A stretch of DNA of 64,000 nucleotides from Eledone cirrhosa (Eukaryota): positions 101,556,001-101,620,000 of the forward strand of contig OZ024745.1 in the NCBI GenBank assembly GCA_964016885.1. Direction: 5' to 3'. The notes beneath the pieces are model-generated. The model was not told the DNA's origin. It ran no database searches and saw only the letters and a program-made list of their open reading frames with translations. This document shows positions 38,614-48,589 of the stretch, one piece after another. The position numbers and the translations under genes are program-made. The stretch's first letter is position 1. Every line of letters begins with the position of its first letter.

Positions 38614-38678
38614 ATTCCACTGGTCGAGTTCGGAAGAAATGGAGTGATAACCCCATGAACATTGAAATGCCAATTTCT
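38614..38678 (+). CDS. Probable host-gene exon (STGRVRKKWSDNPMNIEMPIS)
   Basis: Strong polypyrimidine tract + TTTCAG acceptor and GTAAGT donor. Only the phase 1-0 frame is open. Confidence 0.7.
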
Positions 38679-39968: not shown

Positions 39969-40197
39969 TTAACCCTTTAGCATTTACATTATTCTACTAT
40001 TATATTTTCATGGTAAAGGCTTTATCTCACATAGTTATCTTACATAATATGGAATCTATGAGATTTTGATGATGATATTATTTATTTTGAGAACAATACC
40101 TTAATGTCAGTATGAGTGGCCAGTTATGGTTGGTTTGAACAGAAAGAGATGAGAGAATTCTGGCTGGATATGGCTGGTTTAAATACTAAAGGGTTAA
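39969..40197 (-). mobile_element. MITE family 1
   Basis: TTAA-flanked TIRs, reverse orientation. Confidence 0.9.
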
Positions 40198-40249
40198 GGT
40201 GGTGGATTACTGACCACATAGTCATACTAATGTCATTGTGTCCTTTATC

Positions 40250-40915
40250 TATCATCATCATCATCCTTCGACTCCTCTGTGGGCAGTCGGAACTCTCTTG
40301 ACAATCACTTTCCACACTGTTCGGTCCTGCATTGCTGTCCCCAGATACCTTATTTCCAACCCTGAGTCCCAAGCTATGGTGTCTGGGAAAGTCAGTTTTC
40401 ATGAATCAACACATCCAGAGGGATGCCACAGAAGGAGAGATGAAATGATTTCTTTGTCGGCTCGATGACAGTGACCAGCAAACTGTAGTCTTTTTTGCTT
40501 GAGTCTGAGGAATATTGGAATCAAATCTCTGTACATAGTTTCAAGTGTTGCATGTGATCTCCAGCTTGTTTTTGATTCTTCTGAGCAGATTTGTATATGC
40601 TTCATCCAGCCATCTTTCAAGACGAACAGATAAGGTCCATGTTTCTGATCCATAAAGTAGTACTGGTTCAATCAATGTTCGAAAGATTTGGACTTTTAAG
40701 GAGGATGATAAATTTGAGCACCAAGTTTTGTCAAGCCTGTTGTGCGCATCCCATGCTAGAGCGTTACGAATGTTGACATCTTTTTGGAAGTCTATGACAT
40801 GAGAGCCAAGGTATTTAAAGTTCTCAACCCTTTTGATGGATGTATTATTGAGTGAGAACCTGTATCTATGCTAGGCACACAACTGTGCTTTCTCTGGGTC
40901 TTCCGACTGACAATA
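40250..40915 (-). mobile_element. 3' fragment of a third RTE-like LINE family
   Basis: RVENFKYLGS, LLYGSETWTL, KRLQFAGHCHRA, LLLWHP, and a (GAT)n tail. Confidence 0.8.
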
Positions 40916-41340
40916 TCAGAGTTCTCTTATGCAGCATAGTTCAGTGACTAGTTGAAGGGCAACATTCAACTGGTGGAAAGAAAACAAAAAACAACTGCTA
41001 TTATTAAGACAAGTAAGCAGCCCACCTAAGCAAGCATGGAAAAATGGGTTTAAAGTATTTAAAAAAAAAATGAAAATGAGATATAAGTGTGATACTGTAT
41101 GGCCATAAGACATGGGAAGTGAATATGAAAGAACTATAGTGAATGATGAAGAATGAGTAGAGTGTGGTACTTTAGGTGTGTAGTATATAAAACTAGTGTT
41201 ACTCATCATATGGTTGGTAATTTTGGGAGTATATCTTTGTTACTGTGGATAACAGTAGGTATATACATAAAAGTGTATAAACATTTAAATAGTCTACCAT
41301 GGCTTACTAGTTCTACACGGATATTTAACTTAAATATATA

Positions 41341-41684
41341 TCGTCATCATCATCATTTCATTTTACGTCCGCTTTTCCCTGCTTACAAGGGTGGGACGGG
41401 AACTGATTCTGGCTTGATTTCTACAGCTGGATGACCTTCCTAACACCAACCTCATTTACAGTGAGTGCTGGGTGCTTTTTTTGCCGTGGCACCTCTACGA
41501 CCACTTTGCAGTGGAATGATAGGGACCCCAGTCCTATCATCTCATTTCTACAGCTGAGTAAACTGGAGCAATGTGAAATAAAGTGTCTTGCTCAAGGAAA
41601 CAACATATCACCCGATCTGAGAATTGAAGTCACAACCTTTCGATTGCAAGGCCAATGCTCTTACCACTAAGCCATGTGCCTCCA
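41341..41684 (-). mobile_element. SINE family B, full length
   Basis: tRNA head, CORE-like domain, RTE-B-type tail. Confidence 0.93.
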
Positions 41685-41703
41685 TATATATATATATAAT
41701 ATA

Positions 41704-41934
41704 CTAGCTGGCCTGTCCGGCTGGCGCCTGGCTAGGTATACCTACCCCTACCACTCCACCGCAAAGATACCATTCACCCTCCCGTGTCACATTGTCCTTC
41801 CGACTCTCTCTCAATAACTAACACTTTAATTGTATCTCTCTCTGTCTAACGGCCTATCTCTCTCTTTTACCCTCCCTCTGTTTTTCTGTCTCTCTCTATA
41901 GATGTGTGTGTGTGTAGTTTTCCTAATCTTTCTC

Positions 41935-41979
<45 letters not shown>

Positions 41980-42217
41980 GTGTATATATTGAAGTGAGAT
42001 ACGGAAACTAAAACAGTGTTGTCATATAGTGAGTAAAGCAGTTAAATTTTAGAGAGGGGGAATGATCTTACATACATACATACGTACATACATATAAAGT
42101 ATAGATATGTGTATAGGTTTGTGTATGTGTGCATGTGTGTGTCTGTGTCTTTTGTTTTGATGTTATCCGGCAATTGGCGAAATCAGGTGTGAAAGTATGT
42201 GTATTTGTGTGTGTAGA

Positions 42218-42251
<34 letters not shown>

Positions 42252-42903
42252 TACTTATGTCAGCGGCGACAGAAAAAGTGTGTGGGATACATACATTATT
42301 ATATTTGTCTGTATTTTCGTTCTGCAACCATTATATTATGATATTTGTATCCAAATGATTTTAGATGTATGTATTACCTGCTTGCCCATCTCTCTGTTTC
42401 TCTTTCCCTGTCTCTCTCTCCCCTCTCTCTCTCTTTAGATGTGTGTGTGTGTGTAGTTTTCCTAATCTGTCTCTTTCACTCTCTGTCTCTCTAAGAGATG
42501 TATGTATTACCTGCTTGTGTGTTGACCAAATTTGAAGGAGGTTATCCTTTTGAAATAAACATACATACAACACTCATCTCTATGTTGACATATTGTAAGT
42601 AGATACGGAAAGTAAAAGAGTGTTGTCATATAGAGAGTGAGGAGAGACAGAGTAATGCAGTTAAATTATAGAGAGGGTGAAAGAGGCAGAGAGAGAGAGA
42701 GAGACAACGATCAGCTTTATAATATTTGAGAGTGAATAGTGACAGAAAGAGTAAAGCAGTTAAATTATAGAGAGGGGGAATGATCTATTATAGAGAGAGG
42801 GAAGAGCGACGGAGAGAGTAAAGCTAAGAAACTATAGAGAGGTGTGTCGGATACATACATACATAATACATACACACAACACTCGGCTTTATAATATTAT
42901 AGA
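41704..42903 (-). mobile_element. Non-autonomous Helitron, microsatellite-rich
   Basis: Minus strand: A|TCTATAATATTATAAAGCCGAG 5' end, GC-rich subterminal segment and CTAG|T. Internal duplications. Confidence 0.8.
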
Positions 42904-43086
42904 TATATATCACAAAGAGGGGGTGGTAAGATACCAGGTGGACCATAACGCACCAGAGTACTCAATACCAAGGGTAGTATAGTGGGTAATAGGAAAAGAG
43001 TCAAGACCCCGACAGCTAGATCTAGCTGTCGAAACGGCCAGAGCTCAGTTGGCAGGGTCCTGACTCTTTTCCTATATATATATATA

Positions 43087-43431
43087 TCATCATCATCATC
43101 ATCATCATCATTTTACGTCCACTTTTCCCTGCTTGCAAGGGTGGGACGGGAACTGATTCTGGCTTGATTTCTACAGCTGGATGCCCTTCCTAACACCAAC
43201 CTCATTTACAGTGAGTGGTGGGTGCTTTTTTTGCCGTGGCACCTCCACAACCACTTTGCAGAGGAATGATAGGGACCCCAGTCCCTAACCTCTCATTTCT
43301 ACAGCTGAGTAAACTGGAGCAATGTGAAATAAAGTGTCTTGCTCAAGGAAACAACACATCACCCGGTCTGAGAATTGAACTCACAACCTTTCGATTGCAA
43401 GCCCAATGCTCTAACCACTAAGCCATGTGCC
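43087..43431 (-). mobile_element. SINE family B, full length, between (TA)n tracts
   Basis: Near-identical to the other B copies. Confidence 0.93.
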
Positions 43432-43461
43432 TTTTATTTCATATATATATATATATATATA

Positions 43462-43937
43462 CACCTCTCCAAGACAATGTCACTGGACCGAGACCTTTGG
43501 CGGTACTCAGTAACAGAGAAGACCCGCCTTACCTAAATATATAGTAAAACCTACTCCAGCCAGTAGGCATCTCTAACAAAATACACCCCGTCCCACCACC
43601 ACCACCCCCACCCGATCCACACCACCCCGTTCTATGTAAAGTTATGTTGGTGCCGCGCCATCGAGGCCGAAACAAATGAGATCGTGTAGGTGTCACGACA
43701 AAAAAACACACAGTCCACGCTGTAATGTGGCCGTGTAGGCAACACGGTAAAAACCTCCCAGACCCACACTGTAAATGTGGTTGGTGTTAGGAAGGGCATC
43801 CAACTGTAGAAAACCTGCCAGACAGTCCTATGCGAGCAAGACAATCACTCTTGCCTCAAGTGGGACTACCCCCGTCCAAACCCATGCAAGCGTGGAACAC
43901 GGACGTTAAACGTTGATGATGATGATGATGATGATGA
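43462..43937 (+). mobile_element. Severely 5'-truncated RTE family A (last codons + 3' UTR + tail)
   Basis: LSKTMSLDRDLWRYSVTEKTRLT then a 3' UTR nearly identical to 33186-33570. Confidence 0.9.
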
Positions 43938-44064
43938 TAGATATATATATATATATATATGAAATACGTCCCTTCACGCACAAGGCGCCAAGGTACGCAT
44001 GTATTGTCCAACCAAGTGCCAATGTGGTTCAATGGCGGGTTAATAAATTAACGAGCCAGAACAA

Positions 44065-44323
44065 ATATAAACAAGGTTTAGTAAATAATGAAAAAGTTTC
44101 AAAATAAATTTTAAAAAATTGACTTTACCTACTTCTTTGAATGAAAAGAACCTTCTGACGAGAATCTCTCTTTGCAACGAAGGCCGTATGGTCTCCGTTT
44201 TATTTTTGGGATTCGAAACCGATCGGTAAAGGTAACTTTTATTTCAAAATAAATTTTAAAAAGTTAGGTAAAGTCAATTTTTTAAAATTTATTTTGAAAC
44301 TTTTTCATTATTTACTAAACCTT

Positions 44324-44331
<8 letters not shown>
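44065..44331. repeat. Perfect 67-bp inverted repeat enclosing HHR-1
   Basis: 44065-44131 is the reverse complement of 44265-44331. Confidence 0.95.
44150..44233 (+). ncRNA. Type I hammerhead ribozyme (HHR-1)
   Basis: Stem I ACCTT/AAGGT, core CTGACGA (44155-61), stem II GAATCTC/GGGATTC, GAAA (44215-18), palindromic stem III ACCGATCGGT, GUA cleavage triplet. Confidence 0.85.
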
Positions 44332-44364
<33 letters not shown>

Positions 44365-44380
44365 AAAAGAGTCATGTGTG

Positions 44381-44412
<32 letters not shown>

Positions 44413-44698
44413 GTAATAATAGGTAAATAAAAATTCAAGGTGTAGAGCAACTCAAGCCAGTAGGGCGAGGAGTTTGAATATTGATATTTAGATCAGTCCT
44501 ACAACACCATACGAGATAAATATGTTTCGTTGATCATTGATGACCAACTTGTTCAACCTGTTCCAATGAAAAGGGACTGGAAAATCTTTTTCCCCATTTC
44601 ATTGGCATAGGTTGAGCAAGCTGGTCATCAACGAAACATATATACCTGCTATGATGTTGTAGTAGTACTTACTTCAATATATATATATATGAAGTAAG

Positions 44699-45046
44699 AG
44701 GCACATGGCTTAGTGGTAAGAACATTGGCCTTGCAATCGAAAGGTTGTGAGTTCAATTCTCAGACCGGGTGATGTGTTGTTTCCTTGAGCAAGACACTTT
44801 ATTTCAAATTGCTCCAGTTTACTCAGCTGTAGAAATGAGATGATAGGGACTGGGGTCCCTATCATTCCACTGCAAAGTGGTCGTGGAGGTGCCACGGCAA
44901 AAAAGCACCCAGCACTCACTGTAAATGAGGTTGGTGTTAGGAAGGGCATCCAGCTGTAGAAATCAAGCCAGAATCAGTTCCCGTCCCACCCTTGCAAGCA
45001 GGGAAAAAGTGGACGTAAAATGAAATGATGATGATGATGATGATGA
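44699..45046 (+). mobile_element. SINE family B, full length
   Basis: Head to (ATG)n tail. Confidence 0.93.
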
Positions 45047-45052
45047 AATAAC

Positions 45053-45126
45053 TATTTCATCTGATGAACAAGCTGGACGTTTCTGTAATGATCGTCTAGC
45101 TTCCTGAAACCTCTGGTAATGGAATA
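45053..45126 (+). ncRNA. Type I hammerhead ribozyme (HHR-2)
   Basis: Stem I TATTTCAT/ATGGAATA, core CTGATGA (45061-67), stem II AAGCTGGACG/CGTCTAGCTT, GAAA (45106-09), minimal stem III CC-TCT-GG, GUA triplet. Confidence 0.8.
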
Positions 45127-45246
45127 ATTATATTGTATTGTTTATTATGTAATTAAATAGCTCTGTACTATATATAAGCACTCTTCTTTCCTTCACCTTT
45201 CCTACGGAAATACTTAACGCACGCGCACACACACACACACACACAC

Positions 45247-45509
45247 ACAGCTGGATGCCCTTCCTAACACCAACCTCATTTACAGTGAGTGCTGGGTGAT
45301 TTTTTTGCCGTGGCACCTCCACGACCACTTTGCAGTGGAATGATAGGGACCCCAGTCCCTATCATCTCATTTCTACAGCTGAGTAAACTGGAGCAATGTG
45401 AAATAAAGTGTCTTGCTCAAGGAAACAACACATCACCTGGTCTGAGAATTGAACTCACAACCTTTCGATTGCAAGGCCAATGCTCTAACCACTAAGCCAT
45501 GCGCCTCCA
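45247..45509 (-). mobile_element. SINE family B lacking its tail (abuts a (CA)n tract)
   Basis: Near-identical to the 44699 copy, inverted. Confidence 0.92.
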
Positions 45510-46622
45510 TTATATATATATATTCCATTAATCAAAAAGAATGAAGAAAAGAAAACATAGCTTTGTATAGATGCCCAGTCGATGACAATTACTTGTTTGT
45601 GATTGTATATGTGTGTGTATAGAAGTGTTTATGTATGTGGGTGCATGTATACTAGTATACTGTTCCTTTGTCAATTTATCTCTCTCACTTTTTGCCTGTT
45701 TTTCTACTCAGTATGTATACTCCTCCTTCAGCCTACATGTTAATTTTGTCACTCTCTCTTTATATGTTGTCAAATGTGACAGTAGACCAATGAATCAACA
45801 TGCATAAAGATCTTTAATGTTATATAACTTTATTTTCAACATCTCGCCGAGGTTAACTTTGCCGTTCATCCTTACGGGGTCGATAAAATAAAGTACCAGT
45901 AATACACTGGGTAATTGCTGGCCTTGCGCCAAAAGTAGAAACAATTATATATTAAAGATAAAATTGCCTTAAGTAGAGAAAGTTACTTAACTCTAAAAAC
46001 ATTGGGAGTCAACAGGTAATTTGTGAACAAATTGTGATATGAATGGATGATGTTTGTTGGGTGAATAAATGTCAAGAGATGAGAGTGCAGAGTAACTTTG
46101 CTTGATGTTGGTCAGCCCCACCAATGAGTGATAATCAAGCAGACATACGATCAATGGCATTCCAGCTATCATCATTGTATTGTTTTTTTTGTTTTTTTTC
46201 TAGGAAATTTGTACATCTGACTACATTATGCAATATGTCTTTCTTTTTTTATGATGGGGGTGTTCTGTGGGATATTTTGTTATTGCTAGGAAGTTGAGCA
46301 ACCCTAGAGAGGCTTTTTTTATAGTTTCAGACTATAAAAGAAAATTTTAAGATGAACTATGTCAGACTTGAGAATGACTGGACCTCACAGAGGAGATAGC
46401 ACAAGATTAAAATTCAAAGAGAGTCGTTGATGAAGATTAAAATTTTGCAGACAATGACTTTAATTATGATATTTAATTACATAATGGATAAATTGTATAT
46501 CTTGGGACATTGTGGAATTTGAATAAAACTTGTTGGTTAATTACATATGCAAATAATGTCAATTTTGCTGACTTCAGTTAAACTAACTGGAAAAAACTCT
46601 AGTATAATATTGAACATTTGAT

Positions 46623-46849
46623 TTAACCCTTTAGCATTTAAACCGGCCATATCCGACCAGAGTTCTCTCACCACTTTCTATTCAAACTGGCTGTAACTGG
46701 CCACTCATACTGATGTTAAGGTATTATTCTCAAAATTAATAATAACAAAATCTCATAGATTTGATATTATGAGATAATTATGTGAGGTAAAGCCTTAACC
46801 ATGAAAATATAATAGTAAATATAGATTAATGTAAATGCTAAAGGGTTAA
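46623..46849 (+). mobile_element. MITE family 1
   Basis: Perfect TTAA-CCCTTTAGCATTTA TIRs. Confidence 0.9.
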
Positions 46850-47156
46850 AATGAATAATTCTGGAAGTTTCCATTTCCCTGAGGAATTAAAATAGTTAGT
46901 ACTTCATGTTTACAAACAGCCAATGTCAAGAGTCAAATGTATTATTATATTTTTATCATCTCAACGAAAAACTGCTATAGTTCAGATTCCAGTGTATTTT
47001 TTTAATCTTATTTTTAATTGTATGATAACATTTTTCAGCAAATATACCTTGATTGTGTATATAATTTGTGGAAAGTTAGGTTGATATCAAGAAGGGGATG
47101 AACACTATTTTTATGTCTATTTCTTTATTTTAGTTTCCAAATTGAATACATTAGCC

Positions 47157-47318
47157 TAGGGTTTCCCAAACTTTTTCAAACACAGAACCCCTTTGATTTC
47201 AGAAACTTTTGGGGAACCCCAAAGTCTAATACTGTTATATGGTCGTAATATAAATATACTCCTCTATCTTTTTTCATGGAACCCTTGGGTTCTGTGGAAC
47301 ACACTTAGGGAACCACTG
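47157..47318. mobile_element. hAT-type MITE (162 bp)
   Basis: TIRs TAGGGTTTCCCAA / TAGGGAACCACTG, 8-bp TSD CATTAGCC/CATTAACC, internal GGAACCC repeats. Confidence 0.8.
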
Positions 47319-48589
47319 CATTAACCTATGATGAACTCAATTAAGGTTTTCTTGACCCATTTGACTCTAGTCGTTATTGTTAAATGATTCCAAATGTGTG
47401 AAAGCTATTGTCTGGTTCTATGAATCTGGTTGAGCTTAGTTAATTGGAGAATAACAAAGTGAATTGAAAAACTCCAGAGGGGATAAGTCAAATAACTGTC
47501 ATGTCAATATATATCAATAAAAGAATGTGTGGGACATGAGTAAATTAGGTGTACATAAAGATTATTGTCTGTAAAAAATGATATAACCTATAGATGTGTA
47601 ACACAACTACAATACTGTACAATATTGAAATTTTGTAATTTATTGCAGATTCATTTACTTCCATACTTAGGTGAAATTGCATAAGAATTTCAATGACTGA
47701 GGTTAGGCAATTAAGTAGAATCAACTGTATTTCTGAATAGTTTTCTGATCATATGAAGACTTTACTGATTACTATTGAAGATAATACGTCAGTTATTATC
47801 TTAACAAATATCATTTAGGGATGTTTGGTAGCTGAGAAATGGCTATTTTTATAAGATCTCTTTATTAAATTCAGAAGATACAGTCCAATTTTCATGTGTT
47901 CATGATTTGTAGTGAACATATCTGTCTGGAAGTATTCCTTTCATGTACAAACTCTTTCCTTTTTGATTATATGTATTAGTTCCAGTTCAGTAATATCGTG
48001 ATGGCAACTATTAGTATTCACTGTATTGATATTATCACAGAATTTTGATTAAGGTAAGGTGATTGATGCTACAGGTAGAAGAGGGGGTGTTAGTTATATA
48101 GAAATCAGTGTGTGTGAGTGTAAGGGGAAACCAAAGTAAAACTTCTGGCACTTTTATTTTCATATTGCCTATTACAAGATGTAAGTTTACTATTATTTTG
48201 TTCAATAATGGGCTAGCAATGACTTAGTTGGATTTAATTACAAGCAATAATATTTCAGGTTTTCTTTACTGACATGTCTGTTTAACCTTCCATGGAGACT
48301 TGTTATATTGAAAATATCTTTGAGCTTTATAATATAGAAGCTGAATAGCTTAAGTTGGTGGCTTATATAAATGTGTTCAAAACTTTGTCAGAGCCATTGT
48401 ACTCTAGCCATTAAAAGACAGAATCAATGAGGGAACGTATATATGGTTACTCAGTCTGCTGGAAATAAGTTAGATTTTCAATTCTCATTCTATTGTCTTA
48501 CGAAAAAAAAAAAAGACAAATTGGTCTGTTAGCTGAGATATACTATGTCTGGAAAAAGATGGGATGGTCATGGCTTGAACACTTTGATT

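Follow-up and report, generated by a model that had tools for sequence, protein, structure and literature searches.

An intronic hammerhead motif of Eledone cirrhosa lies in a truncated, 5'-inverted copy of a 483-nt repeat family with paired long and short ends

Why should a complete hammerhead ribozyme motif lie inside a perfect 67-bp inverted repeat within an intron? The locus belongs to a 64,000-nucleotide stretch of the E. cirrhosa genome (contig OZ024745.1; hereafter the window). The first-pass annotation had placed there a full hammerhead core with three pairing stems at 44150-44233, and this was confirmed as a type I motif on the plus strand. Stem I pairs ACCTT (44150-44154) with AAGGT (44229-44233), the core bases are CTGACGA (44155-44161) and GAAA (44215-44218), stem II joins 44162-44168 to 44208-44214, and scission is predicted after A44228. 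The self-complementary palindrome ascribed to stem III is present at 44218-44227 and gives a helix III of 3 bp with a 4-nt loop, so the motif is not minimal in the sense of the consulted parts of PMC4209133, where minimal hammerheads of Penelope-like elements (PLEs) have neither helix III nor loop 3. Loop II, which had been called unusually long, does span 39 nt (44169-44207), but it is not an open loop: it folds as an extension of stem II (z = -3.7) with a distal hairpin at 44179-44196. With stem II capped at 40 nt, a hammerhead pattern search overlooked this motif and matched one at 45061. That second hammerhead-like motif, at 45052-45125 (+) in the same intron and on the same strand (core 45061, GTA 45116-45118), has a 10-bp stem II with an unpaired base and is probably a remnant of another PLE family.

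A scan of positions 40000-48000 with Rfam models, at E up to 10, placed hammerhead families in none of its 34 matches; the identification therefore rests on core, pairing and covariation. Of 60 distinct hammerheads from the family described below and its sister family, 36 were aligned after chimeric or near-duplicate rows had been dropped. In this alignment 90.5% of the cells were paired, as against 26-53% for slid controls, and 12 of the 22 pairs had changed on both sides, a signal that comes mostly from two related clades, so that the shuffle control overstates it. Helices I and II and the distal helix of the stem II extension covary between the two families, whereas helix III is invariant. 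Core columns were invariant in all 36 rows, which had been chosen by the core pattern. The basal pair of stem II is disrupted in 15 of the 19 rows from the sister family.

Thermodynamic predictions were less favorable to the catalytic fold. In a model that leaves tertiary contacts and dimers outside its scope, this fold is less stable than the ensemble by 2.6 kcal/mol in the window copy, where stem III has a probability of 0.03, and by 4.1 kcal/mol in a circular monomer; core bases are mispaired in the best predicted fold of the window copy. A duplex of the palindrome between two RNAs is predicted at -16.6 kcal/mol.

The surrounding structure is an insertion at 43957-44331, and it is a sub-monomer, 5'-inverted copy of a 483-nt hammerhead repeat family. 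Unit positions are those of one natural monomer (L004:1597-2079), with position 1 the base after the cleavage site. Two arms stand back to back in a (TA)n tract and end 188 and 80 nt past the cleavage site. The inverted arm (43957-44133, minus strand) runs from unit position 188 to 12, lacks the ribozyme, has the long (+188) end as its 3' end and is 98.9% identical to the reference monomer. The forward arm (44133-44331, plus strand) comprises unit positions 388-483 followed by 1-80, spans the cleavage site and finishes at the short (+80) end. On the left the element abuts an (AT)10 microsatellite (43941-43960), the last 4 nt of which are common to the long end, and on the right a (TA)18 microsatellite (44327-44362), the first 5 nt of which are common to the short end; target-site duplications are unreadable inside (TA)n.

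Since both arms contain unit positions 14-80, they form the 67-bp inverted repeat, which is exact as had been described: its left arm (44065-44131) is unit 80 to 14 read backwards and its right arm (44265-44331) is unit 14-80, both given on the plus strand. The exact match has no outward extension, and the repeat reaches 77 bp at 95% identity. A 276-nt region folds with z = -18.65 relative to 200 shuffles. The element does not begin at 44065, where it had been taken to start, for the inverted arm continues to 43957; nor is the repeat a frame around the ribozyme. It is a by-product of 5'-inverted insertion, the overlap of two arms, and not a terminal repeat. A 27-nt insertion (44238-44264, plus strand) replaces unit positions 10-13. 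It accounts for the short direct copy of the left arm that had been noticed downstream, since it holds 21 nt (44242-44262) identical to 44097-44117. The insertion is private to the window copy, its junction pattern occurs once in the genome, and we infer a repair or template-switch scar. It is predicted to lengthen stem I, with pairing probabilities of 0.68-1.0 as compared to 0.51-0.74 in the standard copy.

When the central 134 nt were searched against the 3.0-Gb genome of the species, 826 candidates were returned; among the 40 that were scored, many were 100% identical and spaced by 483 nt. Exact matches to stem III numbered 1,371, sister family included, with none for the reversed control. 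The copy number is high, and no sequence link to loci encoding GIY-YIG endonuclease and reverse transcriptase (RT) was found among the 33 GIY-YIG loci searched. Head-to-tail arrays extend to 8 units or more, each unit has a single hammerhead, the GC content of the unit is 38.5%, no reading frame exceeds 135 aa in the 1.7 units of L017, and LTR structure is absent from the maps of 76 regions. By sequence, then, the family has the features of non-LTR retrozymes (tandem units each with a type I hammerhead, non-coding, GC below 50%), and the earlier reading as a non-coding unit of PLE or retrozyme type held. Older subfamilies, about 80-93% identical, were reached through letter differences in the contigs of three runs over 43700-44600, none of which crossed the whole insertion. 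The sister family (L060:1900-2680 (-); L224-L253) has a unit of about 484 nt, the same stem III, collinear blocks in common and 2,240 search candidates. Other repeats were seen in passing. At L091:7500-9400, units of about 480-510 nt, each with a hammerhead-like motif, are repeated in tandem and may represent a third retrozyme family. Near the insertions of L002, L005, L008, L012, L013, L016, L017 and L030 there are several more hammerhead families whose stem III is short and palindromic, some of them arranged as inverted pairs, and (TA)n tracts gather nested PLE-type insertions.

In the consulted parts of PMC7229834 (coral, mussel, axolotl) and of preprint 10.64898/2026.07.22.740005, animal non-LTR retrozymes are likewise non-coding, with GC below 50%, and consist of head-to-tail units that each carry one type I hammerhead; they are dispersed as monomers to multimers and coexist with PLEs. 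The 483-nt unit exceeds the 150-450 bp given in the former and falls within the 51-972 bp of the latter. The present family differs from them by its long stem II extension and by PLE-type fixed ends and inversions, which are not described in the consulted parts of those papers.

To characterize the ends, 120 loci were merged into 76 regions holding 77 insertions. Half of the loci (L001-L060) were the best-matching ones and the others (L131-L190) the first along contig 1, and the ends played no part in the choice; matches under 150 nt and one sister-family region (L187) were dropped before the count. The long end lies at +188/190, and was scored over 172-198 for diverged copies, the alignments of which stop early; the short end lies at +80. 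Inverted insertions numbered 41 of 77: 36 had one long and one short end, one had two short ends (L171), none had two long ends and four had another end. The 36 unidirectional insertions ended short in 26 cases, long in seven and elsewhere in three. Where both ends of an inverted copy fell on these two sites, 36 of 37 were thus mixed. Independent choice would give at most 50% mixed pairs, and the chance of at least 36 in 37 is then about 3e-10 (hand arithmetic). A hand count over the 30 nt next to each of the 110 defined ends gave 15 or more TA/AT steps, out of 29, in 106 of them. In the sister family the ends lie at about +96 and +202, and four of five inverted copies are long plus short, the fifth having an undefined end. 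ATAT occurs at both end sites and at only three places in the unit, which makes a short pairing with the target likely; the exact element boundary is ambiguous within these ATAT bases.

Inversion points and overlap lengths vary between loci. We compared the arms of 35 insertions, leaving out overlaps under 30 positions and L175. In 29 the two arms were closer to each other than to other loci (divergence within the insertion 1.09 vs. 1.79% to other loci for young copies, 4.65 vs. 10.17% for older ones), and in six they were not. Seven of 23 repeated stretches were identical between units. These values fit one template per event together with copying round a circle, and an uncut multimer or gene conversion could also produce them.

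The same rule was found in autonomous elements of this genome. Of 10,596 GIY-YIG candidates 150 were scored and 33 loci examined. Family A (L081, L191-L210) is an autonomous Neptune-type element with RT and GIY-YIG domains, a unit of 4,979 nt and a recurring 775-aa open frame. It is young, as all 150 scored matches are 98-100% identical, and its hammerhead-like motif shows the U3-A8 core that is described in the consulted parts of PMC4209133. Copies of family A end in (TA)n, at either +82 or +150, and among 30 loci all 17 inverted copies with both ends visible were long plus short, two more being unclassified. Families C and D each contributed one inverted copy, also long plus short, bringing the autonomous Neptune-type elements to 19 of 19, and across five families the count is 59 of 60. 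Several copies of family D (L092:4890-4930, L088, L124-L129) carry a more degenerate motif with GCAA for GAAA, perhaps an inactive ribozyme retained as a positional mark.

Sequence comparison linked the retrozyme to none of the elements searched: its tail matched the tails of families A, B and D no better than 300 shuffles did, a low-stringency BLAST of the monomer against the 33 GIY-YIG loci gave a best E of 0.016, in AT-rich DNA, and visual inspection of families C and E gave no retrozyme match. It is thus the shared end signature that points to an autonomous partner. In its two fixed 3' ends, its 5' truncation and inversion and its microsatellite target, the retrozyme resembles a non-autonomous PLE derivative. 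PLE tails at one end only and inverted, 5'-truncated copies are already known qualitatively from the consulted parts of PMC8557442, where the tail measures 30-40 nt, as compared to 108 nt in the retrozyme and 68 nt in family A; here the element is non-coding, and inverted copies follow the one-end rule almost strictly. The same source describes non-autonomous elements of Chlamys, MRC1 among them, which are also PLE derivatives with multicopy head-to-tail insertions. Their 3' ends resemble those of their autonomous families and they lack canonical hammerheads, whereas the present family has a canonical hammerhead and gave no sequence match to a partner among the elements searched. Our library searches, which did not extend to older subscription papers on Penelope, found no paper on a cephalopod retrozyme or on strict end pairing.

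We consider it highly probable that the window copy is a truncated, 5'-inverted non-LTR retrozyme copy, likely inserted into (TA)n by a borrowed Neptune-type RT-endonuclease. Tandem source copies would be transcribed and their hammerheads would cut out monomers, which are probably circularized. A PLE protein, probably a dimer, would nick both strands of the (TA)n tract, so that each target strand primes one of two sites on the same RNA: reverse transcription would begin at +188 from one nick and at +80 from its counterpart, with 4-5 nt of ATAT pairing in either case. The +80 cDNA would run back over the cleavage junction to unit position 388 and the +188 cDNA would halt at position 12. Joined back to back, they would overlap at unit 14-80 and leave the 67-bp inverted repeat. 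According to the consulted parts of PMC11167929, an anole PLE protein, a predicted dimer, nicks and extends both strands, and two internal RT start sites define the PLE tail. The anole Poseidon element PAc resembles the present families in having these two sites downstream of its hammerhead, one of them 85-92 nt past the cut by arithmetic from the paper's figures, next to 80, 82 and about 96 nt here. Priming by the anole enzyme is not homologous to the target, unlike the ATAT pairing proposed above. We lean, with some reserve, towards a reading in which the Neptune-type enzyme integrates as a dimer with two fixed binding sites on a single RNA. Each subunit would prime at one site, via ATAT, from one nicked strand of the (TA)n tract, which would give every inverted insertion exactly one short and one long end, and a retrozyme circle would mimic this signal by its shape and spacing, without sequence homology to the autonomous element.

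The host intron measures 41 kb and belongs to a KATNIP-like gene, and the element lies in it on the sense strand, in agreement with the strand assignment made earlier. A coding exon at 38614-38678 (+) matches residues 3-26 of P0001, a KATNIP homolog, at 87.5%; the next exon with a match begins at 79851 in window numbering, past the window's end, and splice sites were identified. The gene was named via a downstream exon, and the exons match an octopod KATNIP homolog. A 21-aa exon had no match among solved structures. The neighborhood also holds an imperfect nested hairpin at 44499-44662 (36-bp and 42-bp arms, 86%), MITE-like or an old inverted remnant, and three copies, 96-99% identical, of a tRNA-derived SINE-like repeat (43123-43454, 44677-45007, 45247-45506), two of which form an inverted pair enclosing the insertion. 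Upstream of the KATNIP-like gene, on the opposite strand, is a tRNA-splicing endonuclease subunit gene; an exon at L220:5063-5146 (-) matches the Sen54 N-terminal family PF12928 (E 1.3e-07).

Cleavage of the host pre-mRNA by the predicted ribozyme, one of the consequences proposed at the outset, is possible. The site of the cut is the loop of a hairpin of 67-77 bp, which would keep the halves together, and a nicked intron can still be spliced through exon tethering. The two other proposed consequences do not follow. Release of a hairpin is not expected from a single cut in the hairpin loop, as both arms remain attached to the intron. Two tandem cuts are needed for a circular RNA; the inverted arm is unit 12-188, and with only one hammerhead the window copy cannot excise a circle. 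Active retrozymes in the consulted part of preprint 10.64898/2026.07.22.740005 have two consecutive units with complete hammerheads, and the window copy has one. For circle formation this copy would lead nowhere; at most, it would nick the host intron RNA. The consulted part of PMC3365414 offers nothing on intronic ribozymes beyond one reference title.

Could the locus be a host device, with a hairpin-clamped ribozyme retained because it cuts or regulates the pre-mRNA of the KATNIP-like gene, or because it gives rise to edited or small RNA? The sense orientation, the intact core, the perfect 67-bp duplex and the private insertion predicted to lengthen stem I speak for it. We nevertheless regard it as unlikely: many dispersed copies match the ribozyme at 100% over 105 nt, which indicates a young insertion without locus-specific conservation and argues against long-term co-option, and the inverted build is common to 41 of 77 insertions. 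A MITE-like DNA element that captured a ribozyme between 67-bp terminal inverted repeats would match the perfect arms and the TA-rich right flank, and is extremely improbable given that the left arm goes on for 108 further bases of the 483-nt unit, that inversion points and overlap lengths differ by locus, and that this build is unique among the 77 insertions, with its private junction. Terminal inverted repeats are not shared among copies, and a TIR DNA transposon was rejected.

It is also quite improbable that the 483-nt unit is the pseudo-LTR of an undiscovered autonomous PLE with the window copy as its truncated 3' end. The end rule and the (TA)n target are those of autonomous families, and the 33 loci examined are a small part of the 10,596 GIY-YIG candidates. 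Against this, the unit runs head to tail into itself in 76 regions, and long non-repetitive frames at the first 30 stem III loci are only fragments of other retroelements; descent of the retrozyme from a pseudo-LTR is possible. The retrozyme-copy reading has its own difficulties: the predicted energies of the catalytic fold, the broken stem II pair of the sister family, the six insertions with arms no closer than other loci (gene conversion could also homogenize arms), the lack of a sequence match to an autonomous partner, the priming of the anole enzyme (PMC11167929) and the in vitro cleavage of only one of nine frog retrozymes in the consulted part of preprint 10.64898/2026.07.22.740005.

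The window copy itself is probably an ordinary young insertion, and the interest is carried by the strict end pairing. The link between retrozymes and PLEs has so far consisted of co-occurrence and pseudo-LTR similarity; here it is an integration signature shared with autonomous elements of the same genome. The near-strict rule of one long and one short end likely shows how a Penelope-type enzyme primes both DNA strands, and it turns the question of how the PLE tail and the inversions originate into a specific in vitro test, for which the reagents would be a short RNA plus an autonomous family whose copies are young and 99% identical. If true, the two-site dimer reading would explain the PLE tail and would provide direct mechanistic evidence for retrozymes as PLE cargo.
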